Assembly (NCBI GenBank): GCA_965230895.1
Contig: OZ246394.1
Location: 778,627-831,954, forward strand
DNA length: 53,328 nt
Direction: 5' to 3'
Source of the DNA: an uncultured Gammaproteobacteria bacterium
GTDB taxonomy: Bacteria > Patescibacteriota > Microgenomatia > Levybacterales > UBA12049
Shown here: piece by piece, positions 25,454-49,707 of the stretch
Numbering within the stretch: position 1 is the first letter of the stretch
How the letters are laid out: every line of letters begins with the position of its first letter
Made by a program: the position numbers and the translations under genes
The notes under the pieces: generated by a model
The model's database searches: none
Told to the model about the DNA's origin: nothing
Seen by the model: only the letters and a program-made list of their open reading frames with translations

Positions 25454-25530
25454 GGCCCCATCGTCTAGCGGCCTAGGACGTCAGGTTCTCATCCTGAAGA
25501 TCGCGGGTTCGATTCCCGCTGGGGTCACCA
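25454..25530 (+). tRNA. tRNA-Glu (anticodon CTC), CCA encoded
   Basis: Hand-folded. Acceptor GGCCCCA/TGGGGTC, D stem GTCT/GGAC, anticodon stem TCAGG/CCTGA with loop TTCTCAT, 5-nt variable loop, T stem GCGGG/CCCGC with loop TTCGATT, discriminator A plus CCA. Confidence 0.9.
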
Positions 25531-27325: not shown

Positions 27326-27399
27326 ATAGGGATAGTTGTCAAGAGGAAATTAGGCTTTTACCACGCAAAAGACATCGATAATAGCAAACACTATGAGGA

Positions 27400-28681: not shown

Positions 28682-28684
28682 AGC

Positions 28685-29440
28685 TTATTGTATATACCCT
28701 AACGGATTAACCGGTGTCCATACTCCATTATTATTGACTCGAATTTCATAATGTAAATGTTCACCAGTCGTAAATCCGGTATCACCCATCGTTCCAATTG
28801 GTTTGCCTGCCGTTAATGTCTCGCCACTGGTTACAAAGATTTTATTTAAATGCATATCTATTGTTTTAATCGAATTATCATTATTCAAAATCTCGACGGT
28901 ATGCGATCCATATTGGTCAACATAATAATTTACTTTTCCATTCATGGTTGCGTATACGGCAACATCACCAGTGGTCTTAAATGTTGCATTTGACTGATAA
29001 TACGCATCATCAGGTACAAAATCAACTCCTGTATGAACTCCACCAAAAAATGTATAGCTTGGATCCATAAACCCTGCTGTGATTTTAACAAATGTTAAAC
29101 CTGATCCACCTAAAGGATTTTGTATTGGAATATCTGTAGAGACAAAACTACCATCTGCAGGGAGTGAGATATTACTTGCGTTGGCATTTTTGGTAAAAGA
29201 TGGATTAGTGAATATACCAATAATCGCAATAAACAAAACTACAATGAGTACGACTCCGTTGAGTAAAATCGTCAAAACCATTCCTCGAAATTGCACCAGC
29301 AGTTCGGCAGCTAAAGGGAATGGGATAAAGATATAGGCAACAGCTCGAACTATCCAATCCAAAATCAACTCAAATGGATTATTTAGGAGAAGCTGTCCTT
29401 TATCCACTACGTTTTTTAGATTATAAATGTGCTTGACCAT
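28685..29440 (-). CDS. Membrane-anchored M23 peptidase (cell-wall hydrolase of the transfer apparatus)
   Basis: HTGVDF and GEHLHYEIR metal-ligand motifs, with N-terminal TM helices. Confidence 0.8.
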   Translation of the reverse strand: MVKHIYNLKNVVDKGQLLLNNPFELILDWIVRAVAYIFIPFPLAAELLVQFRGMVLTILLNGVVLIVVLFIAIIGIFTNPSFTKNANASNISLPADGSFVSTDIPIQNPLGGSGLTFVKITAGFMDPSYTFFGGVHTGVDFVPDDAYYQSNATFKTTGDVAVYATMNGKVNYYVDQYGSHTVEILNNDNSIKTIDMHLNKIFVTSGETLTAGKPIGTMGDTGFTTGEHLHYEIRVNNNGVWTPVNPLGYIQ

Positions 29441-29441
29441 C

Positions 29442-31607: not shown

Positions 31608-32422
31608 AGTGTATTTCGAAATTGACTTTGAAAATAAGTGATAAGCTGCTTTTCTGTTAATTGCATTGTTTGAATTCGTTCGAGTGCCAAGCTACTTGTA
31701 AACCGTCGTTGTGTATCATCCAGTTTCTGTGCTGCTTCCAGAAAATGTTTATCATCAGTTCCAAGAAGTGGTACTGAGAACACAGCATAGTATTTCATCA
31801 GTTGAAAAGTATTTTGCTCAACAAGCGCAGAAAGCTCTTTAATATAATTCTCAACTAATCCATTAACCTTCTCATTTGCAGTTTCGTAAAGTGAATAATA
31901 ATGTTCGTGATAGTCTTCAACAGTTGCTGTTTCTTTTCGTGAAATGAGCTGCACTTTCATTGGAAGTGTATGAAGCATCGTTTTTATATGATGATAATAT
32001 CGCTCCCGTTCTTCATCATTGAGAAGAGCGATATCAAATGGGCGTATTTCATAAACGGCAATAAGTTTTTTCTTACGAATTATATAATTACCTACCACCT
32101 TAAAATCTCCCGTTGTTTTCTCAAGCTCTCTCATTGTGAATTGCTTCTTTGCAAAGCTATATGATACTGCTCGAGGTATAATTTTATATAACGGTTGATG
32201 ATCAATCTTCAGTGTTGCCACGAGTGCATAAAAAAGTTCTACAAGAAAAATTGTTGCGATAATAAGACCCACTTGATCAACTCTGAGAACAACTTTATAC
32301 ATGAGTAGTGTGAGGAGTGCTAATGCTATACCTCCGATCAAAAAGACCACGGTATCGGTAAAGAACATTGTTCTAAAAATATGTTCTCGTAGATTATCTT
32401 TATAGACGCGTATTGTTCTCAT
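31604..32422 (-). CDS. VirB3-like membrane hairpin protein with cytoplasmic domain
   Basis: Two TM helices, then a domain resembling the VirB4 N-terminal region (IAVYEIRPFDIALLNDEERERYYHHIKTMLHTL). Lies directly upstream of VirB4 with a 4-nt overlap. Confidence 0.5.
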   Translation of the reverse strand: MRTIRVYKDNLREHIFRTMFFTDTVVFLIGGIALALLTLLMYKVVLRVDQVGLIIATIFLVELFYALVATLKIDHQPLYKIIPRAVSYSFAKKQFTMRELEKTTGDFKVVGNYIIRKKKLIAVYEIRPFDIALLNDEERERYYHHIKTMLHTLPMKVQLISRKETATVEDYHEHYYSLYETANEKVNGLVENYIKELSALVEQNTFQLMKYYAVFSVPLLGTDDKHFLEAAQKLDDTQRRFTSSLALERIQTMQLTEKQLITYFQSQFRNTL

Positions 32423-33957
32423 TTTTTAGTATTTCCTTTCTTCTCCTGTTGTATAGAGTGTTTAAATGGCTGTCTTACTCTTGGTTGCTCAGAACTAGGT
32501 TCATTCTTCATAGTGGGCTGGTTAGGAAAGTGAGAATTGTAACTGCCCCGTTTTATTGTTGAGAAATGTGTACGTGATTGTTTCGACTCTTTATCAGCTT
32601 TTGCAGATTGTATATTTGTACCCTGTGATTGTGGAGTAGCAGTTTCAGTCTGATTTTTTGTTGGTCTTTTCTGCATTGATTCTTTTCTCTCCTGCGTCGT
32701 GTTTTTTGTATAAGTTCGTGATGATTCAGTATGGGTGTTGTTTGTCGATTGTTTATTGGTATTTGCAGAGCGATACCCAGAATCTTTATATTCAGTCCCT
32801 GATGCATTTGGCATGTTTCTATCAGCAGTAGGCTTAGTACTTGGTTTTAAAAGTCCAATCTTGCGACCAATATATGTCCCAGCATAACTCCTTGCTCCAA
32901 CAGCGTGTCCTGTTATCGCACCACGTTTTATTTCTCGAACACTACCAGTTAATGCGCCGCTTCCCATCATACTTTGCGCATTGGCACTCATCATCGACCA
33001 CCCGTCACCGAAAATACGGCCGATAAAGATGTTAACCCCTCCTAGAAAAATCAGTGATCCCGAGAAAAGGAAAAGTGTTCCCATTGATCCACCATGTGAG
33101 GTAATAATACTGCCGAGGAGTGAGGAAACAATAGCAAAGCCTAAGACAAAAGCAGGTTGTTGAATGAGGAATGTAAACCATGTTTTAAAATATGTATTGG
33201 TAATATTTTCTGTTTTCTCGGAAAGTGCAAAGGGGAGCACAAGTGGAAAGATAACACTTAAGAAGAGGAGGGAGATAAAGCGAATCATTGCTTGGAAGAC
33301 AATGTAGAGAAAACCGATGAGAAAGAAGCCAATGGCAATAATGAGGACAATCATTTGAATAAGCGTATTGCCATTAACAATAAGCGTTGGGAATTGAGAT
33401 GACATTCCAGTTAGTCTTCGAAACTCCTCCGTATTGACATAAGCTTGAACAAAGGTTGCTATGTTATAAGCATTTTGCGCGATAATTTTTTCATTAAGGA
33501 GATTAATAAACTGAATGCTATATGAAAGAATAGAAGGGGTTACAATGAAAAGGACAACAACAAATACTAATCGTTTGAAGAAGTTTTTTAACTGCATCGT
33601 ATTATCGTGTGTAATATGTGAGAGCGCAGTATAGGAGACGATCAGCACAAAGATTGGAATTGCGATATCAGAAAAGATTGTTCGAAATTGACTGAGTCCT
33701 GATAATGCTGTTCCGTCTTTAAGAGTGATTGTATCTCCAAGTAATTCAGGTGTGTTAAAAATTAGTCCACTTGAAACCCAATCAAACCCAGAAAAGAAAC
33801 TGTTGAGTACACCACTTCCTGATGCCTGCGGTTCATTTGTAACATTTTGCTGGATAGATAACGTTGGAGAAAGTGCTTGAGCGTTAACTGGTTTTACCCC
33901 AAGAAGAAATACGATGAGAAGCAAAAAAATGCTAGACAATACTTTCATGGATAACAA
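32419..33957 (-). CDS. VirB6-like polytopic channel protein with long disordered C-terminal tail
   Basis: Signal peptide (..VKPVNAQA), about 6 TM helices, and ~150 aa of T/S/N/K/Q-rich low-complexity tail. Confidence 0.55.
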   Translation of the reverse strand: MLSMKVLSSIFLLLIVFLLGVKPVNAQALSPTLSIQQNVTNEPQASGSGVLNSFFSGFDWVSSGLIFNTPELLGDTITLKDGTALSGLSQFRTIFSDIAIPIFVLIVSYTALSHITHDNTMQLKNFFKRLVFVVVLFIVTPSILSYSIQFINLLNEKIIAQNAYNIATFVQAYVNTEEFRRLTGMSSQFPTLIVNGNTLIQMIVLIIAIGFFLIGFLYIVFQAMIRFISLLFLSVIFPLVLPFALSEKTENITNTYFKTWFTFLIQQPAFVLGFAIVSSLLGSIITSHGGSMGTLFLFSGSLIFLGGVNIFIGRIFGDGWSMMSANAQSMMGSGALTGSVREIKRGAITGHAVGARSYAGTYIGRKIGLLKPSTKPTADRNMPNASGTEYKDSGYRSANTNKQSTNNTHTESSRTYTKNTTQERKESMQKRPTKNQTETATPQSQGTNIQSAKADKESKQSRTHFSTIKRGSYNSHFPNQPTMKNEPSSEQPRVRQPFKHSIQQEKKGNTKK

Positions 33958-33977
33958 GATCTTTCAAAGGCAGAGGA

Positions 33978-34235
33978 TTATTGGCCACCAAGAAATGTTT
34001 TTAGTACATTTGCAATTGTTGTTGAACCAAAGACGAGGAGTCCACCAACAAGGATATTAAATATCCAATGTTTGAGTCGTGCTTTTCTTTCGATGTCATC
34101 TCCGCTTCCGACGAGTGCAATTCCAATACCTGCGATTGAAAGTGCCATTACTGGAAGGGAATAAAATTGAAGCGTTGCTACTAGCCCCCAAAGGAGTTGG
34201 TCGAGTCCAGCGAATTGTATTGGTGTTCCTTGCAT
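33978..34235 (-). CDS. VirB2/TrbC-like small 2-TM protein (pilin-like)
   Basis: 85 aa with two hydrophobic helices separated by a charged loop (DDIERKARLKH). First gene of the T4SS block. No SD, so the start is uncertain. Confidence 0.45.
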   Translation of the reverse strand: MQGTPIQFAGLDQLLWGLVATLQFYSLPVMALSIAGIGIALVGSGDDIERKARLKHWIFNILVGGLLVFGSTTIANVLKTFLGGQ

Positions 34236-34388: not shown

Positions 34389-35321
34389 TTAATTTATTTG
34401 AACAGTATAGTCTGCTGTTTGTACATTCCCCTCATGTTGGAACTGGGTAAATAACTTATATACTCCAGGATCAGGGAATGTTGTGGAGAAATTAATTTTT
34501 GGTCCTGTACTTGGTTCTCCTTGTTGCATAGCCATCATATTATGTCCTTTAGATGAAGTACTATCTGCCGTAGTCATTGCATGGGTATGGATGAAGTCGA
34601 GTGTGCCTTCTTTTAGGATAACAGTATGCCCAAGGGCTCCTAGATAATTTTCTAAGTTTGTGACGGGTTTTCCATTTTTGGAAACATTTACACTGTAAGT
34701 AAGTTCTTTCTGTGCTTTAGCATCCCCTGAAAGGCCTGAAGTTATTGTATATAAACCATATGATTTTGTCTGTTGTGCGTCTGGCCTTGCTTGTTTTGCC
34801 ACATAGCTATTCATATTGCCAACATTGATATCTTGATATACAGTAACTGGAAGTTTTTGTGGGTTATCATCACCAGGAGTAAAGTCAGGAAAAAGGCGGT
34901 ATGGACCATTCTCTGGAAAGGTAACATCAACACTAAATTCTCCAGTTGCTTCATTAAATGTTGGGTGAAGATGTTGAAAATCTTGTAAATCTTTTCTAAC
35001 TGTTATAAAGTGCATGATTTTTTCATGTACCATATCAAAGTTCTTTAACACCACACCTTTATCGTTTTTTATTTTATACGCAATAGTTGTTTTTTGCCCA
35101 GGCTTTACATTATTCGTGTCAGAGATAACCTCGAGCTCGTAGCCTCTATGTGACTGATCGGCAGGACCACGAGTCATATCTGACATATTATGCCCCATTG
35201 ATGAATTATCATCTATCATAGTTCTAGGAAAGAAATAGATTATACCGACTACAATAATCGCTACTATAATAATTGCTGGGATTAGAATTTTTTTATTCAT
35301 ATATTGTTGCTTCATACCCAA
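34389..35321 (-). CDS. Secreted/anchored His/Met-rich protein with an internally duplicated beta-sandwich-like domain (putative metal binding)
   Basis: N-terminal TM, MGHNMSDM and KGHNMMAMQQ stretches. Repeated pattern ..MHFITVRKDLQDFQHLHP..VTFPENGPYRLF / ..GHTVILKEGTLDFIHTHA..TTFPDPGVYKLF. Start uncertain (35321/35300). Confidence 0.5.
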   Translation of the reverse strand: MGMKQQYMNKKILIPAIIIVAIIVVGIIYFFPRTMIDDNSSMGHNMSDMTRGPADQSHRGYELEVISDTNNVKPGQKTTIAYKIKNDKGVVLKNFDMVHEKIMHFITVRKDLQDFQHLHPTFNEATGEFSVDVTFPENGPYRLFPDFTPGDDNPQKLPVTVYQDINVGNMNSYVAKQARPDAQQTKSYGLYTITSGLSGDAKAQKELTYSVNVSKNGKPVTNLENYLGALGHTVILKEGTLDFIHTHAMTTADSTSSKGHNMMAMQQGEPSTGPKINFSTTFPDPGVYKLFTQFQHEGNVQTADYTVQIN

Positions 35322-35508
35322 GTGTTTCTATAATTGTCATAAGTTTTTCTTCAGGAACTTTGTTGGGGTCAAAGGTAACTTCTGTTTGTTGCTTGGCATA
35401 GCTTGTGCTTGATTCTTTAACTCCATTGGTATCTTCAAGTCCCCCATCAATATTAAATGCACAACTTGTGCAATGCATTCCATTTATGTTAAATTTTATA
35501 GTTTTCAT
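35293..35508 (-). CDS. copZ: HMA-domain copper chaperone
   Basis: MKTIKFNINGMHCTSCAFNI (MxCxxC). Start moved to ATG 35508. Confidence 0.85.
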   Translation of the reverse strand: MKTIKFNINGMHCTSCAFNIDGGLEDTNGVKESSTSYAKQQTEVTFDPNKVPEEKLMTIIETLGYEATIYE

Positions 35509-35510
35509 AG

Positions 35511-36560
35511 TTATATTACATTTATTGTTCCACGAAACATTCCCATACTGCACATAAAAGCAAGCTCTCCTGGTTCTGTTGGAGCTGTAAAGGTAATTTT
35601 ATCTGATGAACCAATTGGAACAACTTTTTGGATATTCATTGAAGGAAGTGTAAATGATTGTGTACATCCTCCTCCACCTGTATTTTTAAGATTTAACGTA
35701 ACTTGAGAGCCTGCTTTAACCGTTATGTTATCTGGATTGTACCCGGACTCTTCAATGGTAATTGTAGCTTCGTTAACTGGTCGAGCTTTTGCATTACTTT
35801 GGGTGGCAGCGCTTGCTACGGAGGATGAAACTTCACAATAACTAATCGCACAGAAGAAGTTCTTGCTGATATTCTCAAGTGTTATCTTACTTCCTGTAAG
35901 TGCCAGAACATTATTGAGATTAAAGACAGCAAGAAGGATAAGTGCAAATGCCGCAAGTTTGGTAAATTTTTGCTGCATACTTTCTCCAAGCCGAGTTGCT
36001 AAGTAGCCAAATACGAAGAATAGTGGAGATGTTCCAAGTACAAATGCAAAGAGAATAGCTGCACCTGAAAGAGGGTTACCTGATGCAATTGCAAGCGCCA
36101 TCATTGCCTGTGTAGTGCCGCATGGGATAAATACAGTAAAGGCACCAACAATTGCTGGAGCTAATATACTATTACTTTTCGACTCTTTTCTAACTAATCG
36201 TGTCAAGAAACGGGGAGGTTGGATAATAAAATAACGGAATATTGGATGTACATTAAGTAAATTAAACGCTGTACCTAACATGAAAATGCCAACTGCAAAT
36301 TGTAGTACAATATTTGCAGTAAGAGATAATTGGAATAGAGAGCCAAACCATCCAAGTAAAAATCCAAGAATAGTATAAGCTGCAAGTTTAGCCGCTAAGA
36401 AAGAAAGTATAGGAAGTGCGTTCCCAGAACGCTTAGTATCTTCTTTTAGTTTTTGTTCATGACGTTGAGCTATTGTGGCAGCCAATAAGCCACCTTGTAC
36501 TGCAAGGCAGGTTAACGCGCCTGCAAATAATCCTGTTAAAAAAATAGTAATTAAGTTCAT
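35511..36560 (-). CDS. DsbD_2/TauE-like permease fused to a C-terminal cupredoxin-like domain
   Basis: TCLAVQGG and FIPCGTTQ membrane Cys motifs. C-terminal ITVKAGSQVTLNLKN..LAFMCSMGMFRGTINVI. Confidence 0.6.
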   Translation of the reverse strand: MNLITIFLTGLFAGALTCLAVQGGLLAATIAQRHEQKLKEDTKRSGNALPILSFLAAKLAAYTILGFLLGWFGSLFQLSLTANIVLQFAVGIFMLGTAFNLLNVHPIFRYFIIQPPRFLTRLVRKESKSNSILAPAIVGAFTVFIPCGTTQAMMALAIASGNPLSGAAILFAFVLGTSPLFFVFGYLATRLGESMQQKFTKLAAFALILLAVFNLNNVLALTGSKITLENISKNFFCAISYCEVSSSVASAATQSNAKARPVNEATITIEESGYNPDNITVKAGSQVTLNLKNTGGGGCTQSFTLPSMNIQKVVPIGSSDKITFTAPTEPGELAFMCSMGMFRGTINVI

Positions 36561-36562
36561 AG

Positions 36563-36991
36563 TTATTCTATAATTATTTTACCCGTCATCCCTAGTGCCT
36601 TATGATTTTTAACTGAACAGTAATATTCAAATGTGCCTATTTTGCTTGCTGCAAATTCAACTGTTTGTGTATCTTTTTCTTCAAGCAATTGAGTCGCCAC
36701 ATTTAATTCATCAATTCTAAAATCATGTAGACCTTCAATATTATGGAATATTATCTTTATTGTTTCTCCTTTTTTGACACGCATTAGACCGGGCTGAAAC
36801 ATATAGTTTGATCCAATAACATCAAACTCGCGCACATTGCCCATGAGTGTGCCAGTTACTGAACTCTGCTGAGTATTTTGTAACATATCCTCTTTGTTGT
36901 CCCAGCCAAATAAATCACTAAGTGGCTTATACATTGACAAAGCTAGGAAAAAAATAAGTATTCCTATGGTTATTTTCTTCCAAGTTGGCAT
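36563..36991 (-). CDS. Membrane-anchored type-1 cupredoxin (plastocyanin/amicyanin-like)
   Basis: EGLHDF ... YYCSVKNHKALGM (H, C-x4-H-x4-M ligand pattern). Confidence 0.75.
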   Translation of the reverse strand: MPTWKKITIGILIFFLALSMYKPLSDLFGWDNKEDMLQNTQQSSVTGTLMGNVREFDVIGSNYMFQPGLMRVKKGETIKIIFHNIEGLHDFRIDELNVATQLLEEKDTQTVEFAASKIGTFEYYCSVKNHKALGMTGKIIIE

Positions 36992-37058
36992 AATTTAAGT
37001 CTACGACTAATTGTAGTAGATCATTGTAAATATATCAACTTCTTTAATTACCATATTA

Positions 37059-37655
37059 TTATTGATCGAGCTGAGCATATACAACTAATCGTTCAGCATA
37101 AGTATTAGATTTGTCATTCCAAGTTCCCTGACAGGTAATAAGGTTAAGCATAGGTTTTTCAGAATCTCCAAACACTTCCTTTAAAGGAAAGTTATCATAA
37201 GGATATTTAGCTAGCTTAATCACTGAAAAAGTTTGTTTTTCCCCTTTATCATCAATTACTGTGATTTTATCTCCTTTTTGAAGTTTGTTTAAGTCCCAGA
37301 AGACAGCGGGAGAGCCATCCTTTTTATCATAATGACCTGCAAGCACTGCGTTTCCAGTCTGCCCTGGTAGAAACCCTGGTTTGTACCAGGCTGTGTTATC
37401 TGCGTCTTTTGGTACATCCATTCTACCTTCCTTGTCGTTTCCAACTTCTTCAATATTGGTGTCTACATTGATACTTGGTATTTGAACTTTTTGAGGTATA
37501 CTTGGCTGAGATTTCTTAATAGAATTAGCAGTTTGTTCTTTATTTATTTGGGCAGAAAGTACTAATTGTTTATCGGAATTTGAGAGATAAGCTCCAGCCC
37601 CTATTCCTACAGATATACCTATAATAATGATTAATGTTATTAATTTATTTTTCAT
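37059..37655 (-). CDS. Sortase-family transpeptidase (class E/F-like)
   Basis: N-terminal TM, LAGHYD, LNLITCQG (TLxTC), ERLVVYA (Arg). Confidence 0.8.
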   Translation of the reverse strand: MKNKLITLIIIIGISVGIGAGAYLSNSDKQLVLSAQINKEQTANSIKKSQPSIPQKVQIPSINVDTNIEEVGNDKEGRMDVPKDADNTAWYKPGFLPGQTGNAVLAGHYDKKDGSPAVFWDLNKLQKGDKITVIDDKGEKQTFSVIKLAKYPYDNFPLKEVFGDSEKPMLNLITCQGTWNDKSNTYAERLVVYAQLDQ

Positions 37656-37667
37656 AAATATTTTTTA

Positions 37668-37708
37668 GAACATGATGCGTTAATAATTTATTTTAACGCA
37701 TCATGTTC
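37668..37708 (-). promoter_or_regulatory. Perfect 16-bp stem hairpin between the small peptide gene and the sortase
   Basis: GAACATGATGCGTTAA (37668-83), 9-nt loop, TTAACGCATCATGTTC (37693-708). No U-tract on the transcribed strand. Confidence 0.6.
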
Positions 37709-37729
37709 CTTAGCTCTTATTAAACCAAT

Positions 37730-37900
37730 TTATTCAGCTCTACCCGTTGCTGGTGCTGAACTTGGCATCGCAGCACTGGTTGTTGGTGTTACTGTTGTCG
37801 TATTATTTGTCGTGTTTGCTGTTTGTGCAAATGTCATTGTTGCCGCTGCCATTGCTGAAATTGCAAATACTCCTGTTGCTATTGTTACTTTTTTAAACAT
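37730..37900 (-). CDS. Small secreted Thr-rich peptide (56 aa)
   Basis: Strong SD GAAAGGAGGTGATAAT before ATG 37900. Signal-like MFKKVTIATGVFAISAMAAATMTFA. Mature part QTANTTNNTTTVTPTTSAAMPSSAPATGRAE. Confidence 0.5.
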   Translation of the reverse strand: MFKKVTIATGVFAISAMAAATMTFAQTANTTNNTTTVTPTTSAAMPSSAPATGRAE

Positions 37901-37961
37901 ATTATCACCTCCTTTCAAATATTTCGTATTAATTAATTTCGACTACTGATGCATGCATTGA

Positions 37962-38816
37962 CTATTTAAGCTGTTGATCTATAACCGTTTTGAATGAACT
38001 CAACGGTTGTGCACCGATAAGTGGCGTACCGATAATTGTACCGTTAGAAGAGGACTTACCGATAAAAAATGATGGGGTTCCAGATGCGCCAACACTTCCT
38101 GCATTCGCTATATCTTTATCTACTTCAGCTTTATATTTACCTCCATCAAGGCAAGCTTGCAGATCATTACCATTGAGTCCTAAGTCATCAGCTATAATTG
38201 GAAGTTGATCAAGCGCAAGTCCCGTTCCATTAGATGTGGTTCGCTTAAATATCTCGTCATGATATTTGAAATATATTTCGTCTCCGCCTTGTTCTCTAGC
38301 ACATTCTGCTGCCTCAGCTTCCTTAGGTGCATTTTGATGGAAAGAAAGGGGCAGATCACGATACACAAGTTTTACTTTCCCTGTATCGATATATTCCTTT
38401 TTTAGCTGTGATAATGTATCGTCGTAAAATTGTTTGCAAAATGGGCACTCATAATCAGAAAATTCAATAATTGTTACTTTTGCATTTTTATCTCCCAAAA
38501 TAGGATCATCATCGATTGATACTTTTTTAGGGCTTAAATCTTCAGTAGGAACAGCTTGTGGTGCTTGAGCATTGTTTGCTGCTTGAACAGTAGAAGGACT
38601 AGTTGTGTTTGCTTTTTGAGCACCCTCTAAGTACAGTACTTTATTTGTTAACATTCCTAGCATAAATGCAAAAATAATTAATACGATAGTAAGAAAGCCA
38701 TTGGTGGTACGAAGAAAAGCAAATTTTGGAATTGCTATATTTACATAACCTGAAGATTTTTCTTTTTCTACCTGGGTTAATTCTTGATTTTTTACTAGAG
38801 AAGAATTTTTTGGCAT
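37962..38816 (-). CDS. Membrane-anchored DsbA-family thiol:disulfide oxidoreductase
   Basis: FSDYECPFCKQFY (CxxC) thioredoxin fold, with an N-terminal TM. Confidence 0.8.
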   Translation of the reverse strand: MPKNSSLVKNQELTQVEKEKSSGYVNIAIPKFAFLRTTNGFLTIVLIIFAFMLGMLTNKVLYLEGAQKANTTSPSTVQAANNAQAPQAVPTEDLSPKKVSIDDDPILGDKNAKVTIIEFSDYECPFCKQFYDDTLSQLKKEYIDTGKVKLVYRDLPLSFHQNAPKEAEAAECAREQGGDEIYFKYHDEIFKRTTSNGTGLALDQLPIIADDLGLNGNDLQACLDGGKYKAEVDKDIANAGSVGASGTPSFFIGKSSSNGTIIGTPLIGAQPLSSFKTVIDQQLK

Positions 38817-38828
38817 AACGAGTTTATC

Positions 38829-38866
38829 TACTACACAGTGTAGTAATAGATGATGGCCTATGTCAA
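38829..38866 (-). promoter_or_regulatory. Candidate promoter with a 17-bp perfect palindromic operator (BlaI/CopY-type TACA..TGTA box)
   Basis: Minus strand: TTGACA (38866-61), 18 nt, TACACT (38842-37). Palindrome TACTACAC-A-GTGTAGTA (38829-38845) covers the -10. Confidence 0.55.
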
Positions 38867-38884: not shown

Positions 38885-39898
38885 TTAATGCTTAACAGGA
38901 GAATACATATGCGAAGCCTTTTGTATTGGTTGCTCTTTACTGCTTGATGTTGAAGGAAGTGCATTTAAATTTTGCTCGCTTTTACATGAGTTCATGCATG
39001 CTCCATCTGTGCAGAGCATAACGACATCATGGTCTACATGATGGACTTCTTCTGCGTATATAGGACTTACCATAACAACTCCAACAAGGAATGTCGAGAA
39101 AAGGGTAATAAGCAAATGCTTTACTCTAAATAGCCTACGTCCATAATCCTTATCTAGTAAGAAATATATTCTTGGTTCAAGTGTGTCATAATCCGCAATT
39201 GATGCAAGTGCGACATTCTTCATAGATGGAAATGCAAGAAGTTTTTTCAGTGCTGAGACGAGAGGATATTGAGAACCTACTTTGTTGATTGCAAATGTAT
39301 CAGCTTTTATTTCCCTATCTATACGATATTTTTTAATAAAATCTCCGAGTAATGGAAAAAATGGGAGAAGCGAATACGCTACCGAAGCGATTATCATAGT
39401 AAAGGTATCATGATTTTCGAGATGGTACTGCTCGTGTCGTAATACAGCTTCGAGTTCTTTTTGATTAAGTTTTGCCACTATACCTGTCGATATATAAATC
39501 TTTGGACTTTTTATTCCAAGGCAATAAGCAAAGGGCTTATCAGATTTAATAATAATTGTCTCTTGCTCTAATCCCAAATGTGTTAATAGCGTAAACAAAT
39601 TTTTATGAACAATTTTTTTATCATGTAATTTTCGTCGCAGTATAATTACTTTAATACTTAAAACAATAAATTTTAGAAATGAGACAGCGACGAGTAAAAA
39701 AAGTATAACAAGAGGTGTAATGCTTAAAAAATAGGGGATAGGTTCTATGTATGTTGTAATAAATGATTGACAATAATAGACTGCATGATTAAGCAATGGA
39801 GTAAGCTTTTGAGCAATGATAAATAACAGACTGCTTGCTGTCAAAACTAATCCAGAAAAAAAAACAAGATTTTTATTTACGTTTATCATACTCATCAA
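38885..39898 (-). CDS. BlaR1/MecR1-family M56 membrane metalloprotease without a penicillin-binding sensor domain
   Basis: RHEQYHLENHD (HExxH) in a polytopic protein. Tail after the last TM: EEVHHVDHDVVMLCTDGACMNSCKSE. Overlaps the BlaI-like gene. Confidence 0.8.
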   Translation of the reverse strand: MMSMINVNKNLVFFSGLVLTASSLLFIIAQKLTPLLNHAVYYCQSFITTYIEPIPYFLSITPLVILFLLVAVSFLKFIVLSIKVIILRRKLHDKKIVHKNLFTLLTHLGLEQETIIIKSDKPFAYCLGIKSPKIYISTGIVAKLNQKELEAVLRHEQYHLENHDTFTMIIASVAYSLLPFFPLLGDFIKKYRIDREIKADTFAINKVGSQYPLVSALKKLLAFPSMKNVALASIADYDTLEPRIYFLLDKDYGRRLFRVKHLLITLFSTFLVGVVMVSPIYAEEVHHVDHDVVMLCTDGACMNSCKSEQNLNALPSTSSSKEQPIQKASHMYSPVKH

Positions 39899-40259
39899 GC
39901 ATGTCCAAAAAATATTGTCGTTTTTTTTCTGGTAAATTGTCTACACTCTCTGCAAAAGAAGCGATAGCTGTATCGCCATATGAATTTATAAATTTTCTTA
40001 AAAATGATTGGGCGATACTCTTACTATATTTTTCCTTCGTAATTTTTGGTGAATATAGATATCCGTTCTTATCTTCTTTTCGGTCTAGCAAACCTTTATC
40101 AAATAGCCGTTGTAGTATAGTTGCTACTGTTGTATAAGCAAGCTTTTTGTCTTTTTCAAGTACTTTAAGAACATCTCTCCCTGAACAACTTTTATTTTCC
40201 CAAAGTATATCCATGATCTTTTGTTCTAATTCTCCCAAGGTAGTTGATTTCATGTCCAT
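39873..40259 (-). CDS. BlaI/MecI/CopY-family winged-helix repressor
   Basis: LGELEQKIMDILWE..AYTTVATILQRLFDKGLLDR. No C-terminal CxCxxxxCxC copper motif. Confidence 0.85.
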   Translation of the reverse strand: MDMKSTTLGELEQKIMDILWENKSCSGRDVLKVLEKDKKLAYTTVATILQRLFDKGLLDRKEDKNGYLYSPKITKEKYSKSIAQSFLRKFINSYGDTAIASFAESVDNLPEKKRQYFLDMLDEYDKRK

Positions 40260-40309: not shown

Positions 40310-41299
40310 TCATTTCAAGTATTTGTTAAATACTTCTTTAGTTCTTTCAGCAATTAGATCCCAACCTAAGTTTCTAAAGTTGTGATCCTGTCCTTCGTAT
40401 TCAAAGTATTCAACTTGTTTACCTTCTTTTTTGAGTGCCGTATTAAGTTCCCGTGACCACTCAGGGTTTACTTCTGTATCCTCAAGTCCTTGGTGGATGC
40501 TTATTGGTGCAGTAAGATATGTGAGGTAATTAATAGGAGAAACACTCTTTAAGCTTGGATTAATTGAGACAGAACCTTTGTTAGTTCTTCCATAGAATCC
40601 TAAATTATCTGCTGCATCAGCACTTGTAGGTGCCCACAGAACAATTGCTTTAACTTTATCTGTTACTTCAGCAGTTCTTAAAGATACCTCTCCTCCCATA
40701 CTATGTCCCCACATGCCAATTCTATTTGTATCCGCTTGTGGAATGTTTTTTATTGAAGCAATAAGATTCAAAACATCAATAGCATATTCTGGACGATGTC
40801 CACCTCTATTGCCTGAATCGTTCTCTGAATTACCATGCCCTCTGTAATCTGAGGCAAGAGTAATATAGCCTTCTGGTACTAGTATATCTGCAATATTTCG
40901 AGTGCCATCACCGCTTTTAAATTCAGTTGGAGAATAATAACCATGATTAAGAACTATAATTGGAAACGGTCCTTCTCCTTGTGGGATATTCATCACTCCA
41001 TAGATTTTTAAATTATCGGAGGGATAGGAGATTAAATAACTAGTATAAGGATCCGATTGAGCAAGCGTTTTTTCAATTTTGATATCTCCACCTGTAAAGT
41101 TTCTCTTGCGTAAATCTTCAATAAAATTTGGAGAACTTCCGATTGTATTTTCAAGTGAATGATCTGTCTCCAGTGCATTATCTTGTGATTTACTATCTGG
41201 TTGTTTAGGGTTAGCAATTTTAAAACCTTGCCATAATACAAATACTCCCAAACATAAAAGTACAAGTAATGCGATAGTTGACGTTTTTTTTAATTTCAT
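40310..41299 (-). CDS. Secreted alpha/beta hydrolase (S9/dienelactone-hydrolase-like)
   Basis: GMWGHSMGG nucleophile elbow. Start chosen at MKLKKTST (41299). Confidence 0.7.
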   Translation of the reverse strand: MKLKKTSTIALLVLLCLGVFVLWQGFKIANPKQPDSKSQDNALETDHSLENTIGSSPNFIEDLRKRNFTGGDIKIEKTLAQSDPYTSYLISYPSDNLKIYGVMNIPQGEGPFPIIVLNHGYYSPTEFKSGDGTRNIADILVPEGYITLASDYRGHGNSENDSGNRGGHRPEYAIDVLNLIASIKNIPQADTNRIGMWGHSMGGEVSLRTAEVTDKVKAIVLWAPTSADAADNLGFYGRTNKGSVSINPSLKSVSPINYLTYLTAPISIHQGLEDTEVNPEWSRELNTALKKEGKQVEYFEYEGQDHNFRNLGWDLIAERTKEVFNKYLK

Positions 41300-41316
41300 A
41301 GTGGATTTAATAGTTG

Positions 41317-42021
41317 TTAATGCGTAGACCAAGAAATTATTTCGTTTAGGTTTTCATTTTTCTTTATTTTACTGATTACTTTATTAGTATTGGTTGCTAT
41401 TACATAGATATCACTATCTTTTGAGTTTCTTGTATATAGTTTTGTTGCATCTTTCGATAGTGCTACTTCATGAGGTAGGCTTTCAGGTTGTAACTGTATC
41501 ATTTGTTCAACTTTATAATTTGAAGTATTTATTTTATAGATAGCATTCCCTGTCTCAGCTGCTATATAAGCAGACTTATTATCTGGCGTAAAGACAAGAT
41601 CACCCAGATGTATGTTATTTCCCATTTGTATCCTTTCTTTAACAGTATTTGTACTGAGATCAATTACTAGTACTTGGTCGCTTGTCATCATCAGATGCAG
41701 GTGTTCTTTGGCATTTCTATGAAATGCGCTTAGCTGATCCTGAGAAGCACTTGCTGTTACCCAAACATATTGTTTACTTGGTGCCATTTGAATATCATGA
41801 GGGGAAAGTTCTACCGTAATGTTTTCCTCCTTAGAAGAAAGACTAATTGAAGTAATTTCTTTATTTGTCTTTGCATCCTCAATAATAACTTGGTTTCCCA
41901 CAGCCTTAAAAACAAGTTCTTCCGAGTTTGACTTTAACCTATCGGAAAATATAAATGAGATTGCACCAATTGCAATAATGACTACAAGAATAATTCCAAT
42001 TAATATTTTTTTCTTATGCAT
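41317..42021 (-). CDS. Membrane-anchored YVTN-type beta-propeller repeat protein
   Basis: N-terminal TM. Repeated ..YVWVTASAS.., ..AYIAAETGNAIYKINTSNYKV.., ..LYTRNSKDSDIYVIATNTNKV. Confidence 0.55.
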   Translation of the reverse strand: MHKKKILIGIILVVIIAIGAISFIFSDRLKSNSEELVFKAVGNQVIIEDAKTNKEITSISLSSKEENITVELSPHDIQMAPSKQYVWVTASASQDQLSAFHRNAKEHLHLMMTSDQVLVIDLSTNTVKERIQMGNNIHLGDLVFTPDNKSAYIAAETGNAIYKINTSNYKVEQMIQLQPESLPHEVALSKDATKLYTRNSKDSDIYVIATNTNKVISKIKKNENLNEIISWSTH

Positions 42022-42039
42022 AGGGTTTGATGTTCCTAA

Positions 42040-44265
42040 TTAAATTTTCACTCGCTTTAGAAGTAGCGAATTTGTAACTACAGATATTGAACTACTTGCC
42101 ATAGCTACAGAGGCAAAAATAGGATTAAGGAGAGGTCCTCCAAATGGAAAGAGAACCCCCATAGCAACGGGAATGAGCACGATATTATACCCAAATGCCC
42201 AGAACAGATTCAGTTTTATTGTTCGCATTGTCTTTTTAGACAGTTCAAACGCTGCTGCTACACTTCGCAAATCTTTATTAATAAGTGTTATATCAGCAGC
42301 TTCAATGGCAATATCAGTTCCTGTTCCCATAGCTATACCCACATCAGCAGCCGCAATTGCAGGAGCATCATTAATTCCATCACCAACCATTGCTACTTGT
42401 TTGCCTTCTGCTTGTAATTTTCGTACTTCTGCTTCTTTCTGATCAGGTAAGACTTCAGCGAGTATTCGTTTAATTCCAAGTTGCGAAGCGATAGCCTTTG
42501 CTGCTCTTTCGTTATCACCAGTGATCATAATAACTTCTATGCCTCGTTTTACAAGCCGAGCAACGCCCTCTTTGGCTGTATCCTTAATCGTATCTGCAAC
42601 GGCAATCAGCCCAAGGAGCTTTCCCTCAGATGCAAGAAGCATAACTGTTTTGCCTTCATTCTCAAGTTTCTCAATGTCATACTGAACTTGTTTCAGGATC
42701 TCTATTTTCTCTCTATCCATTAATCGCTTATTGCCAAAGAATACTTTTCTCTTTCCGATAGTTCCTTCAACCCCATGTCCAGCAATACCATTAAACTTTG
42801 TTACAGGGAAGACTTTTACTTTCTGAGTTTCAGCATATTTTACAATTGCTTCAGCTAGTGAATGCTCTGAGCCTTTTTCGATAGATGCAGCAAGTTCTAA
42901 TACATCATCCTTTTTAGCTTTATTGAGTGGAATAATATCCGTTACTTCAGGTTTACCTTTGGTAAGCGTGCCAGTTTTATCAAACACAATTGCAGTTATC
43001 TTATTAGCAATTTCCAAACTGGATGCTTCTTTGAAAAGTATCCCATGTTCCGCACCTTTTCCAGTACCCACCATAATCGCTGTTGGAGTAGCCAATCCCA
43101 TTGCACAAGGACATGCAATGATAAGAACTGCTACTGTATTAAGTAGAGCAAAAAGAAATGCAGGGTTTGGACCAAATATATACCAGATACCAAATGTTAA
43201 AAAGGCAAGCATAATAACTATTGGGACAAAGTAGGATGAGACAACATCTGCAAGCTTTTGGATTGGTGCTTTACTGCCTTGTGCTTCTTCGACGAGCTTT
43301 ATAATTTGAGCAAGCATAGTATCTGAACCTACTTTAGTCGCTTTATAGGTAAAGGATCCGGTTTTGTTGATCGTTGCCCCAATGACCGTGTCTCCTTTTG
43401 CAATATCGACAGGTATACTTTCTCCTGTAACAACCGATTGATCGATACTTGATTCACCATCAATGACCGTTCCATCAACTGGGATTTTCTCACCTGGTCT
43501 TACTCGAAGAACATCACCAATTTGTACCTCTTCAAATGGAATATCCACTTCTTTGCCCTCTCGTATTACTCGGGCTGTTTTTGCTTGCAGTCCAATGAGT
43601 TTTTTAATCGCCTGAGAAGTTCCTGATTTCGCTTGGGCTTCAAAATACCTCCCTAAGAGAATAAGTCCAATGACGATCACAGAAACATCGAAATAGGGCA
43701 TATGTTCTATACCTAAGTTCATGACCACTTCAGGGAAAAATGTAACAAATACTGAATATGCAAAAGCCACTGTTGTTCCAAGTGCCACCAATGTATCCAT
43801 GTTTGCTGTGCGATGTTTTAAAGCAGGTATTGTTGCCTTATAAAATTCTAGTCCTGCCCAAAATTGAATTGGTATAGCAAGCAATAATTGTGTGAAAGGA
43901 TTTTGCAAGATTGCTGGTGCTGTATTCATCAAACCGGGAAAACTTCCCCAAAGTAAAAACGCTCCAGAGGTCAGACTAGCAATAACCTTTACTTTGAGAT
44001 TGGCCAGCTCTTTTTTCTTTTCTTCTTCTCTCAGTTCTTCATTTTTTTCTTTGAGATCTAATGTATATCCTGTTTGAGAAACTGATTCAGCAAGCTGCTC
44101 TGGAGTGCAGTTATTTTCATCATAGGTGACAGTTGCTTTTGTTGTTGCTAAATTCACTACAGCATCTGTAACCCCAGGTGTTTTCTTCAACGCCCGTTCT
44201 GTAACTCTAACACATGAAGCACAATGCATGCCTTTAATTGGAAATGATTTTTTAACTTCACTCAT
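42040..44265 (-). CDS. copA: Cu(I)-translocating P1B-type ATPase
   Basis: HMA GMHCASC, CPC in the TM region, [15 protein letters not shown]. Confidence 0.95.
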
Positions 44266-44267
44266 AT

Positions 44268-44627
44268 TTATGTAACTATGATTTTCCCATGGAACATATT
44301 CATACCACAGGCAAAACCAAATTCTCCTTTCTCTTTTGGCGTTACTTCAATCGTAACTTTTTTATTGAGCGGCAAATATTTTTTGATGCGGAAATCTCCT
44401 AATACAACTTCTTCCAAACAACTTGAAGGGTCTTTTCTCGTGAATGAAATTCTTGTAGTTTTATTTACGGGTATAGAAATAGTATTGGGAGAGTAACCAC
44501 CTTCAACTGTAATATCTACAGAGTCAGTAACAGAAAAAACTTCTTCTTTTTTCATGAGGAAGAACCAATAAGTAAAGGTCATTCCTGCTAGCATAAATAG
44601 TGCGACTAAAATTTTATCAAGTTCCAT
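44268..44627 (-). CDS. Membrane-anchored cupredoxin-like domain protein
   Basis: Start moved to MELDKIL (SD AAGGAGGT upstream). [17 protein letters not shown], the same C-x-M-x-M-F-x-G motif as the tail of 35511-36560. Confidence 0.6.
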
Positions 44628-44680
44628 AATTTGTGTTACCTCCTTGGAAGAAGCGCAGATTTGCACCTCTTCTAAAAAGA

Positions 44681-45103
44681 TTACTGGGTAAATCCCCAAT
44701 CTTTTTGCCATTGTTGCATTTGGCTAATTTCACTTTCTTGTGCAGAAATAATGTTTTTGGATAGATCTTTTATTTCTTGATGACCTGCATTTGCTTCAGC
44801 TGCTTTTGCCATCTCAATAGCACCTTGATGATGAGCAATCATTCCTTCAATAAATGCTTTATCAAAATCATCACCAGACTTACCTTCTAAAGCAGTCTTC
44901 ATATCTGCCATACTCATTTGATCCATTGTCGTACTACCATGAGTCATTCCTTCCATTGAGTCATTTGATGGAACCATCGCTGATGGTGTTGTATTAGTTG
45001 TTGCTAATTTTGAAGCGGCCGTCATTTGGCTTGCTACAACTGTTCCAGAAATTACAGCTCCTACAATTAAACCAACAATTCCATATGTTAATGTTTTTTT
45101 CAT
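44681..45103 (-). CDS. DUF305-family (ferritin-like four-helix) metal-resistance protein
   Basis: DKAFIEGMIAHHQGAIEMAKAA and ISAQESEISQMQQW. Confidence 0.75.
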   Translation of the reverse strand: MKKTLTYGIVGLIVGAVISGTVVASQMTAASKLATTNTTPSAMVPSNDSMEGMTHGSTTMDQMSMADMKTALEGKSGDDFDKAFIEGMIAHHQGAIEMAKAAEANAGHQEIKDLSKNIISAQESEISQMQQWQKDWGFTQ

Positions 45104-45122
45104 ATATTCACCTCCTTTACTT

Positions 45123-45911
45123 TTATTTTACCGTTACTATTCCCCCGATACTTGCGTTAATGTGATCGTGATATGTCCATACACCTTTTTTATCAAAGAC
45201 ATATCGATATATACTGCCTTTTTTCGTTGGCTTGAACTGGTCAAATGTTGGTAAATCTGTATGGGATGGATGGGGAGCTGAAGCAACCCACATATCAGTA
45301 CTACTTTCGTTAACAAATTCAACCATACTACCTTGAGTGACTTCAATTTTCTCTGGTATAAAACCTTTGTCAGTATATTTCACTTTTATCATACTTTGCA
45401 TACCAGCCATATTGTGGCCCAACATTGCTGAAGAATCACCTTCGGTAATAGTAGCGGGGAGTGATTTGCCTGTTTTAACATAATTAGCTGTCATCGTCCC
45501 GTTTTCGTCTAACATCGGACGGTCAAAATCATTAAATACCCCATCATCTCCATAATCCTCGTAAATCATCACAATAAGTTTTTTATTAGAAATATCTGCA
45601 TTTCCTAACGGTATAGTTATATTTGCGTATGTTCCTTTATCTAAAGGTTTACTTATCTCCACAACTTGACTTAGCTTATCTCCTTCCATCTCACGTACAA
45701 CAAGAAATCCTTTTTTTGATAAAGTTACGCTTTTAACGAGTACTTTATCTTTTGGTTCTTGAGGAAATACTTGTAATGTCTCTTGTTTTGTAGTCTTATT
45801 TCCTGATGCGTTCTTCTCATGTTTATCTGTCTGTTGATTAAAATAAAGGTAGAGTCCAAAAGCTACCATTAAAAATAGTACAAATGTAATTAGTATTTTT
45901 TGTATCTTCAT
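45123..45911 (-). CDS. Membrane-anchored protein with a C-terminal cupredoxin-like domain
   Basis: N-terminal TM. C-terminus FIPEKIEVTQGSMVEFVNES..HPSH..WTYHDHINASIGGIVTVK. Confidence 0.5.
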   Translation of the reverse strand: MKIQKILITFVLFLMVAFGLYLYFNQQTDKHEKNASGNKTTKQETLQVFPQEPKDKVLVKSVTLSKKGFLVVREMEGDKLSQVVEISKPLDKGTYANITIPLGNADISNKKLIVMIYEDYGDDGVFNDFDRPMLDENGTMTANYVKTGKSLPATITEGDSSAMLGHNMAGMQSMIKVKYTDKGFIPEKIEVTQGSMVEFVNESSTDMWVASAPHPSHTDLPTFDQFKPTKKGSIYRYVFDKKGVWTYHDHINASIGGIVTVK

Positions 45912-45913
45912 AT

Positions 45914-46186
45914 CTAACTTTTTTTCTTAAATACTTGCATTACTTCATTTATTGTTTCTTCTTTATTTCCTTTGCTAATCGCGTCCGCAACACAAGTCTT
46001 TAAATGGTTTTCTAGAATGACATTTCCAGTTTCCTTTAATCCGCTTTGCACTGCCTGCAATTGATGCATAACATCAATGCAATACGTGTCAGTCTCGACC
46101 ATGGAAATAACTTTATCAATGTGTCCTCGAGCAATCTTTAATCTGTGAAGAATTCGTTCTTGTTGATCTTTTGGTCTATAAGCCAT
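45914..46186 (-). CDS. csoR: CsoR/RcnR-family metal-sensing repressor
   Basis: RLKIARGHIDKV..DTYCIDVMHQLQAV..HLKTCV (C-H-C ligands). Start at ATG 46186-84. Confidence 0.85.
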   Translation of the reverse strand: MAYRPKDQQERILHRLKIARGHIDKVISMVETDTYCIDVMHQLQAVQSGLKETGNVILENHLKTCVADAISKGNKEETINEVMQVFKKKS

Positions 46187-46235
46187 ATATCCCCCCAATA
46201 GGGATATATTACTACACCCTGTAGGAGATTGTCAA
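46185..46235 (-). promoter_or_regulatory. Candidate cargo-operon promoter carrying two operator-like boxes
   Basis: Minus strand: TTGACA (46235-30), 18 nt, TAATAT (46211-06). The spacer holds TACTACAC-c-cTGTAGgA (46210-26, plus-strand reading). ATATATCCC-N7-GGGATATAT (46185-46209) overlaps the csoR ATG. Confidence 0.55.
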
Positions 46236-49606: not shown

Positions 49607-49707
49607 AAAGTGTCTATAACGTTACACACAAATAATGGTTAATATTGAGGCTATTATTTAAAAAAGTCTGTCACCCTATCCCTATAAAGAGAGATGAAAT
49701 AATATTT

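Follow-up and report, generated by a model that had tools for sequence, protein, structure and literature searches.

A copper-island-linked BlaI/M56 gene pair of Patescibacteria with a Cys/His outer tail and a conserved operator

The gene pair

The window considered here is the whole of a stretch of 53,328 nucleotides (nt) from contig OZ246394.1 (assembly GCA_965230895.1, positions 778,627 to 831,954 of the forward strand), titled as an uncultured Gammaproteobacteria bacterium and placed by GTDB in the Patescibacteriota (Microgenomatia; Levybacterales; UBA12049). Within a copper island on its minus strand lie two overlapping genes, blaI and an M56 gene, which encode a repressor of the BlaI/CopY family and a membrane protease of the BlaR1 type. 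There is good support for a real, conserved BlaI/M56 switch that is linked to copper islands and has a distinctive Cys/His tail outside the cell and a defined operator. The main features of the pair are as follows.

39873-40259, minus strand: BlaI/CopY-family winged-helix repressor, 128 amino acids (aa); PF03965 Penicillinase_R, 95.3 bits
38885-39889, minus strand: M56 BlaR1-type membrane zinc metalloprotease, 334 aa plus stop; PF05569, 56.9 bits
39422-39436, minus strand: HEQYH zinc-binding/catalytic motif, residues 152-156 (H152, E153, H156)
39731-39811, minus strand: outer loop, residues 27-53, the putative equivalent of BlaR1 loop EL1 and a predicted beta-hairpin, with H35 and Y38-Y39-C40-Q41
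38888-39061, minus strand: 58-aa predicted extracytoplasmic tail, residues 277-334, from alignments and AlphaFold2 (AF2) secondary structure

The match of the M56 protein to Pfam Peptidase_M56 (PF05569) lies well above the cutoff of 31 bits (E 2.4e-15), and M48 was also matched. Its gluzincin motif is complete: H152, E153 and H156, with E193/D197 (ExxxD) downstream, are invariant in 112 sequences and are found in distant relatives too. Pfam detects no penicillin-binding or transpeptidase-fold domain, and the protein stops 58 aa past its last transmembrane helix, at a size of 334-337 aa compared to 585 aa for BlaR1. With the NCBIfam BlaR1/MecR1 models NF000326 and NF033108 it reaches 35.4 bits against a cutoff of 400 and 19.9 against 1200. 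An initial annotation of this DNA, made from the sequence alone, had described an M56 protease with HEQYH that lacks the penicillin-binding sensor, and the PF05569 match and the missing transpeptidase/penicillin-binding protein (PBP) domain bear this out. The longer size, 337 aa, results from a TTG start at 39898; the homologues and the database entry use the ATG at 39889 (MINVNK...), which gives 334 aa. From this ATG the blaI and M56 genes overlap by 17 nt, and the overlap is identical in the other loci whose gene calls were read.

The repressor exceeds the PF03965 cutoff of 22.6 bits and falls below that of CopY_TcrY (TIGR02698; 53.5 bits, cutoff 121.95). It has a single Cys, at position 25, which is Ser or Gly in relatives; the 26 aligned members of the repressor family have 0-2 Cys each, none of them conserved and none C-terminal. 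The absence of the C-terminal CxCx4CxC motif of CopY, noted at the outset, thus extends to the family. The repressor aligns without gaps to S. aureus BlaI (1SD4, E 8.7e-12) and also matches 1OKR among the solved BlaI/MecI structures (E 3e-10), and its conserved motif SYGDTAIAS|FAESVDNLP falls at the position of the N101|F102 scissile bond. The best-conserved C-terminal motif of the family, SFGDTAIAS|FAESIDKLP, aligns gap-free to the same bond. The lack of a conserved Cys, together with a motif at the scissile-bond position, fits release of the repressor by proteolysis rather than by direct metal binding.

Topology and predicted structure of the M56 protein

Hydropathy of the M56 protein indicates full transmembrane segments at residues 8-26, 55-82 and 259-277, and a hydrophobic re-entrant stretch at 163-181. 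Six Lys/Arg residues lie within the 28 residues (83-110) that follow the second transmembrane segment, or helix 53-89, and acidic residues outweigh basic ones in the tail. With 112 homologues as input, the AF2 model (predicted local distance difference test, pLDDT, 85; predicted TM-score, pTM, 0.80) consists, in order, of a helix (6-29), a beta-hairpin (36-50), a long helix (53-89), the protease domain, a helix (256-274), a second hairpin (278-293, with tail strands 278-283 and 288-293), two short helices (298-302 and 305-309) and a disordered segment (315-328). The five best Foldseek matches to this model were all S. aureus BlaR1; 8EXP was found with E 4e-6, probability 1.0 and a TM-score, normalised to the query, of 0.45.

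The cryo-electron microscopy structure of S. aureus BlaR1 has the C-terminal sensor outside the cell, where it is touched by the outside loop EL1; helix alpha3 joins EL1 to the protease, and a signal-peptidase site has been mapped after the last transmembrane helix (PMC9834060). In the M56 protein the outer loop leads directly into the long helix 53-89, which connects to the protease domain. Since this helix falls on BlaR1 helix alpha3 in the sequence alignment, loop 27-53 would be the equivalent of EL1 and the tail would stand in place of the sensor domain, both of them outside. By homology and charge, then, the M56 protein is predicted to span the membrane three times, with a cytoplasmic protease domain and with loop and tail outside. 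Topology and structure prediction had been proposed initially as checks; they place the tail outside the membrane and give a BlaR1-like fold.

A conserved framework of four cysteines

The features of the tail are a signal-peptidase-like P-I-Y-A|E-E junction, the strand E281-x-H283-H284-x-x-H287-D288, the triplet C293-x4-C298-x3-C302 and a C-terminal Y-S/T-P motif. The tail sequence quoted in the initial annotation is exact and does contain three Cys; its count of four His in 25 residues is in error, there being three His in 26 residues.

A homology search with the M56 protein returned 205 homologues, nearly all of 300-345 aa, and those recorded under a named organism all belong to the Patescibacteria (Levy-, Woese- and Daviesbacteria). 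In the 112 that were aligned, C40 of the outer loop and C302 of the tail are invariant (112/112), as are P276 and the loop motif Y38-Y39-C40-Q41. C293 and C298 occur together in 101 sequences and are missing together in 11. Conservation is 97% for H35 and H283 and at least 90% for each of E281, D288 and A279. When a profile was searched against 1.84 billion representatives, 198 clusters (50% identity) were found at E <= 1e-30. C40 and a Cx4-6Cx3C tail recur across these approximately 198 clusters, and members with only 33-37% identity (loci L022-L027 of those fetched for comparison) retain E-x-H...D...C-x5-C-x3-C. What is deeply conserved is a set of four Cys, C40 and the tail Cys triplet, along with E281, H283 and D288. 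The description of the tail as Cys/His-rich accordingly holds for its Cys, and the His-rich HHxxHD stretch is limited to the subclade of the window. A profile of the tail only (47 tails), searched against a collection of 5.8 billion proteins, collected only five candidates, none of which scored.

The conservation pattern suggests that C40 pairs with C302 and C293 with C298, either as disulfides or as joint ligands. C40 is missing in distant Chloroflexota M56 proteins. Outside the family it occurs only in clades of the candidate phyla radiation (CPR) with Cys-containing tails: those of L041 and L044 are Cys-rich and that of L073 has a single Cys.

Several further observations on the M56 proteins may be recorded here. 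The P-[VI]-x-A|x-E junction after the last transmembrane helix (39050-39064, residues 276-280) resembles a signal peptidase I site. Nearly all family members have an [FY]-[ST]-P motif 3-6 residues from the C-terminus (38888-38910, residues 327-334 in the window), following a variable Ser/Asn/Thr-rich linker. C123 (39521-39523) is invariant in an FA[FY]CLG strand just upstream of HExxH, where S. aureus BlaR1 has Trp; it was rejected as a copper-specific feature, since Chloroflexota M56 proteins outside any copper context conserve it to the same degree. Other CPR M56 clades (L041, L044, L071) have unrelated but Cys-rich tails, with 3-5 Cys. L041 and L044 share the Cys at the C40 position and have the same operator, described below, after the gene; L041 also adjoins CopA, DsbD_2 and HMA homologues. 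It may be that BlaR-like proteins of CPR bacteria generally carry Cys-rich tails on the outside.

Operators and promoters

A palindromic element recurs in promoters of the island, and the following control elements are placed in the window.

38828-38846, minus strand: predicted operator O1, TTACTACACTGTGTAGTAG, overlapping the -10 TACACT (38837-38842) of the dsbA promoter
37001-37019, minus strand: predicted operator O2, CTACTACAATTAGTCGTAG, overlapping the -10 TACAAT of the cupredoxin/DsbD_2-cupredoxin/HMA/YtkA-like operon
46209-46227, minus strand: predicted, degenerate operator O3 (2/16 mismatches), between the -35 and -10 of the csoR promoter
46187-46207, minus strand: CsoR-type box ATATCCCTATTGGGGGGATAT, directly before the csoR ATG at 46186

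The core of O1 is a perfect 17-bp palindrome, TACTACAC-T-GTGTAGTA (38829-38845), in the 69-nt gap between the M56 stop and dsbA. It lies 15 nt after the -35 TTGACA (38861-38866), and its left half is the -10 itself. A scan of the window for CTACTACA-N3-TGTAGTAG with up to three mismatches gave four sites compared to 0.13 expected, and three of the four lie in promoters, before dsbA, the cupredoxin operon and csoR. Perfect copies of the O3 element occupy the same place in the csoR promoters of L003 and L010. Consensus promoters as such were not above chance in the window overall (50 sites, 45.5 expected); the three promoters with an operator rank among the best-matching sites.

Within about 100 nt after the M56 stop, overlapping the -10 of the promoter just downstream, the element is found in 23 of 25 distinct family loci. 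In other loci it often lies directly before blaI, which argues for autoregulation of blaI there, and in several it precedes csoR. There are 58 sites in 383 kb of family loci versus 4 in 543 kb of non-family loci. All four of the latter are in three CPR loci, three of them just after an M56 gene and one upstream of M56.

CsoR was considered as the protein that binds the palindrome and was rejected. A separate, classic CsoR box (ATATCCC-N4-GGGGGGATAT) adjoins the palindrome, and the palindrome is also present in loci that have no csoR (L005, L009, L024, L026 and L030); for these two reasons it is assigned to the BlaI-like repressor. In 11 other loci the CsoR box is likewise kept in front of csoR, with or without the palindrome, and it appears to be a second, independent control element of the csoR-copA operon.

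At the csoR promoter (46187-46227) the BlaI-type palindrome and the CsoR box stand back to back, as they do in L003, L006, L008 and L010. The csoR start is probably the ATG at 46186 (90 aa), in preference to the TTG at 46198. Start codons only a few bases after the operator and -10 are found at many CPR loci, for example ...TGTAGTATG; such short distances are seen at L003 9623, L005 9620 and 11043, L009 10997, L024 1657 and others. This spacing points to leaderless mRNAs for blaI and some downstream genes.

The copper island and the neighbourhoods of homologues

Between 46186 and 34389 every gene is on the minus strand. Besides the pair, they include:

45914-46186, minus strand: csoR
45123-45911, minus strand: DUF7282/cupredoxin protein
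44681-45103, minus strand: DUF305/CopM-like protein
44268-44711, minus strand: CupA homologue, 147 aa (S. pneumoniae CupA 2MRY/4F2E, E 3.5e-23), with a CGMNM motif
42040-44265, minus strand: CopA P1B-ATPase, HMA domain and E1-E2 ATPase core
41317-42021, minus strand: beta-propeller protein
40310-41332, minus strand: alpha/beta hydrolase
37962-38816, minus strand: membrane-anchored DsbA/BdbD-like thiol-disulfide oxidoreductase with a CPFC active site (Thioredoxin_4/DSBA), first gene under O1
36563-36991, minus strand: cupredoxin, predicted first gene controlled by O2
35511-36560, minus strand: DsbD_2/CcdA-cupredoxin fusion with a CSMGM motif
35293-35553, minus strand: HMA protein
34389-35321, minus strand: YtkA-like His/Met-rich protein

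The genes from csoR to the hydrolase (40310-46186) are taken as the upstream copper operon. After the M56 gene the order is dsbA-like, a 62-aa secreted protein, sortase, cupredoxin, DsbD_2-cupredoxin, HMA and YtkA-like. The CopA of the island is of the CPC type. The copper context given in the initial annotation (CsoR, CopA, a CopZ-like HMA protein, cupredoxins and a DsbA-like protein) is therefore confirmed.

Proteins of the island were compared by tblastn with 80 fetched loci, with CopA, CsoR, DsbD_2-cupredoxin and HMA taken as a four-gene count. One or more of these four have homologues in 20 of 26 distinct tail-bearing loci, and five of the six exceptions are contigs of less than 7.1 kb. 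Among 45 distant M56 loci, mostly of Chloroflexota, 43 have a BlaI partner and only one, L041 (CPR), has homologues by this count; L045 (CPR) has DsbA- and cupredoxin-like matches only. The DsbA-like gene directly follows M56 in 19 of 25 loci. Synteny of the type hydrolase-blaI-M56-dsbA-DsbD_2/cupredoxin-HMA, with csoR/copA upstream, is found in Woesebacteria (CP065002.1), Daviesbacteria and others, and family neighbourhoods also include cupA-like genes and a multicopper oxidase. A CusRS/CopRS-type two-component system was not seen in the loci examined. The first reading of this DNA had made its hypothesis depend on conservation of the tail among homologues and on their association with metal genes. 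The tail is conserved, and the association is present in the family and lacking in its distant, tail-less M56 relatives, so that the hypothesis of a metal- or redox-sensing switch is supported in part.

Among PDB entries, the relatives of the DsbA-like protein include BdbD and actinobacterial DsbA, with weaker matches to the copper-resistance protein ScsC (E ~1e-7). The regulated DsbA-like/DsbD_2 pair appears to recall the Scs copper-tolerance system, only distantly. In the DsbD_2/CcdA-cupredoxin protein, where CSMGM is similar to the CGMNM of CupA, a thiol-reductant transporter is fused to a Cu(I)-binding domain, a fusion that appears uncharacterised. At 37059-37918 an open reading frame of 62 aa, with a signal peptide, a Thr/Asn-rich region and the C-terminal sequence SAPATGRAE, is followed by the sortase gene. 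The two may be a sortase and its substrate under operator O1.

Relation to known systems

Copper sensing in bacteria has been attributed to a few families, namely CueR, CsoR, CopY and CusRS/CopRS; PetRP is a recent addition and a photosynthetic switch. The initial annotation knew of no characterised example of a metal- or thiol-redox-sensing system of the BlaR1 type. PetR/PetP (slr0240/slr0241) of Synechocystis sp. PCC 6803 is one, a copper-responsive BlaI/BlaR-type pair described by Garcia-Canas et al. (bioRxiv 10.1101/2020.07.31.226407; PNAS 2021). PetP is an M48/M56 protease without a PBP domain that degrades PetR only with copper; four transmembrane helices have been described, and two Met residues in the loop that joins helices two and three were proposed as ligands. 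The PetR regulon consists of four genes, petE, petJ and two small genes, and is unrelated to copper resistance (bioRxiv 10.1101/2020.07.31.226407).

Going by the published description, the pair in the window shares with PetR/PetP a BlaI/CopY-family regulator devoid of the CopY Cys motif, whose gene overlaps that of the M48/M56 protease downstream, a protein that likewise has no PBP domain. The operator cores are also alike, TACA-N3-TGTA here and GACA-N3-TGTC in PetR, both conforming to xACA-N3-TGTx. In contrast to cyanobacterial PetP, which lacks such a tail, the M56 protein has a C-terminal outside domain. The regulons likewise differ: the operators lie before dsbA, cupredoxin/DsbD_2/HMA and csoR-copA, and the petE/petJ hallmark of PetRP, a regulon of photosynthetic electron carriers, is absent. 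With PetRP as a precedent, the switch does not constitute a new category.

Like BlaR1/BlaI and MecR1/MecI of S. aureus and Bacillus licheniformis, the pair has a cytoplasmic M56 gluzincin domain, an EL1-type loop upstream of the protease helix, an outside part after the last transmembrane helix with a signal peptidase (SPase)-like site, TACA/TGTA operators, and a C-terminal dimerisation region of the repressor that holds the equivalent of the N101|F102 cut site, at which cleavage is predicted here. It differs in the missing penicillin-binding domain, in size (334 compared to ~585 aa), in having one helix rather than two before EL1, in the position of the repressor gene, which comes first, and in a regulon without beta-lactamase or PBP. 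With CopY/TcrY (Enterococcus hirae; copY-cupA-copA of S. pneumoniae) it shares a repressor of the BlaI fold, an operon of the cupA-copA type and a TACA..TGTA box. However, CopY senses Cu(I) itself through its C-terminal CxCx4CxC, and no protease is involved. The spacer of the CopY cop box is 2 nt, compared to 3 nt in the present palindrome.

A study of C. difficile CenIR from 2026 reports that the majority of proteins annotated as BlaR-like have no PBP domain and that their outside segments are diverse (PMC13492132). CenIR, M. tuberculosis BlaI/BlaR and the atypical BlaIR of P. aeruginosa have in common with the present pair a two-gene proteolysis design and an outside segment that is not for beta-lactams. 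In those systems, however, the signals are unknown or non-metal, the tails are unrelated and there is no copper context. A separate extracytoplasmic copper sensor next to a cytoplasmic Cu(I) sensor would also recall CusRS/CopRS beside CueR/CsoR, with different proteins, and with proteolysis in place of the phosphorelay. In E. coli the same two-compartment logic is seen in CueR and CusRS. A limited full-text literature search found no description of the clade, the tail or the operator, which is not proof of absence.

A proposed mechanism

On balance we favour the view that a regulated-proteolysis switch of the BlaI/BlaR1 type has been re-purposed as an extracytoplasmic sensor of copper, or of thiophilic metals, for a mobile copper-defence island of Patescibacteria. 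A dimer of the BlaI-like protein would bind CTACTACA-N3-TGTAGTAG at the dsbA-sortase and cupredoxin/DsbD_2-cupredoxin/HMA promoters and, more weakly, at the csoR-cupA-copA promoter. The outside sensor would consist of the EL1-equivalent loop (H35, C40) and the 58-aa tail (E281, H283, H284, H287, D288, C293, C298, C302). Copper would bind to His, acidic and Cys residues, or would shift the state of the C40-C302 and C293-C298 pairs, and the arrangement of loop and tail would change. As in BlaR1, the long helix 53-89 would pass the signal to the cytoplasmic protease, which would cut the repressor near S101|F102 and so derepress the three island promoters. In parallel CsoR, which has a box of its own in the csoR promoter, would sense cytoplasmic Cu(I). 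The ligand, the cleavage of the repressor, the operator-binding protein and the direction of regulation are what we infer.

More specifically, the outer loop and the Cys/His tail might together be a very small metal-binding domain, one that detects copper directly on the outside of the cell and gates proteolysis of the repressor; this is a tentative proposal, held with less than even confidence. As a further twist, signal peptidase might cut P-I-Y-A|E-E, so that the tail is held by the C40-C302 bond alone and the metal or redox state decides whether it is shed.

Several points weigh against these proposals. The HHxxHD run is not conserved family-wide, and some members, such as L027, have neither H283 nor D288. 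Pairwise loss of Cys would be expected of structural disulfides too, so that the Cys need not be ligands. Covariation by mutual information with average product correction (MI-APC; 243 sequences, effective number (Neff) 209) supports both hairpins but gave no coupling between loop and tail, with one pair in the top 100 against 1.8 expected; contact between the two therefore has no independent support. The blaI gene of the window has no good operator, and the assignment of the operator to the BlaI-like protein is inferred from co-occurrence and from the resemblance of its half-sites to those of the family. No transcript runs with the sequence were found; the runs that hold it are bioreactor and rhizosphere DNA.

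Alternative explanations

The main alternative, which overlaps with the copper model, is an envelope sensor of thiol-disulfide redox state. The four outside Cys would be substrates of the DsbA-like protein that the switch itself controls, and their oxidation state would set protease activity in a homeostatic loop for oxidative folding. Copper would act indirectly, through wrong disulfides or blocked thiols. In 19 of 25 loci the first gene after the operator encodes a DsbA-like protein, with DsbD_2/CcdA coming after it; nothing in the tail is conserved more deeply than the Cys pairs, which are lost pairwise, and the His-rich stretch is dispensable in many members. All this is as the redox model would have it. 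We nevertheless think it unlikely, given that the neighbourhood is specifically related to copper, with CsoR, CPC-type CopA, CupA, HMA, cupredoxins and multicopper oxidase, that the operator is also found in csoR-copA promoters, and that E281, H283 and D288 are conserved alongside the Cys.

A second alternative assigns the tail a role in structure or turnover only, as what remains of a larger, lost sensor domain: a stub stapled by disulfides and provided with a signal-peptidase site. The signal would then be perceived in the membrane or cytoplasmic part of the M56 protein, or through another protein of the island that docks on it. PetP senses copper with no tail at all, the P-[VI]-x-A|x-E junction resembles the SPase site at which the BlaR1 sensor is shed, and the failure to detect loop-tail covariation would be in keeping with a passive stub. 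The invariance of C123 beside the active-site strand could be cited as well, but M56 proteins of Chloroflexota with no copper context keep that residue to the same extent. Strong purifying selection over ~30 residues, E281, H283, D288 and M291 among them, goes beyond what two disulfides need and makes this explanation quite improbable.

That the pair answers a non-metal envelope signal, such as cell-wall damage, antibiotics or peptides, and merely travels with copper genes on a mobile element, would suit the great diversity of outside domains in BlaR-like proteins, whose signals are mostly unknown (PMC13492132), and the location of the island inside an element of that kind, but it is very unlikely because the link to copper and thiol genes holds at 33-78% identity across different genomes and gene orders, the operator lies in the promoters of those same genes, and no beta-lactamase or PBP gene is consistently nearby.

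If the favoured view of an extracytoplasmic copper switch is correct, protease-based copper sensing would extend to bona fide copper-defence genes, to the very large, uncultured Patescibacteria radiation and to a mobile element that spreads such islands. Should loop and tail sense the metal directly, it would mark the first case of a copper-resistance regulon controlled through regulated proteolysis, CPR bacteria would have an extracytoplasmic copper sensor in place of a two-component system of the CusRS/CopRS type, and the obvious candidate ligands could show how PetP-type proteases sense copper. The candidate sensor is small and defined by sequence, four Cys and a few His and acidic residues in a protein of 334 aa, and should be tractable in a heterologous host. 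The conserved operator provides a handle for prediction of the regulon in hundreds of metagenome-assembled genomes.

The mobile element and related records

The copper island is cargo of an element resembling integrative and conjugative elements (ICE), whose genes flank it at 25454-34235 and 47120-50478.

25454-25530: tRNA-Glu
25473-27044: serine recombinase, overlapping tRNA-Glu
29442-31607: VirB4-like ATPase
32419-33957: TrbL/VirB6
33978-34235: TrbC/VirB2 pilin
47120-49606: VirD4-like coupling protein
49645-50478: Replic_Relax protein

An M23 peptidase also belongs to the element. The window was searched for an att-type direct repeat of the tRNA-Glu end, with none found. Mobility genes adjoin related islands too, a recombinase in L003 and a VirD4-like gene in L008.

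Several GTDB records with full-length family members in typical CPR-style copper islands (L010, L013-L015, L017, L019, L020 and L026) bear the title 'uncultured Gammaproteobacteria bacterium'. Such titles are probably wrong or placeholders, to judge by the gene content and by the 46-56% identity to proteins of Levy- and Woesebacteria. A further copy of the M56 gene product, 77% identical (P0003; L001, L002), is on record for the 1.61-Mb contig that holds the window's protein. The second copy is accompanied by a 90% identical blaI, a 74% identical dsbA and a perfect operator, and the genome may thus carry two such blaI-M56 modules.

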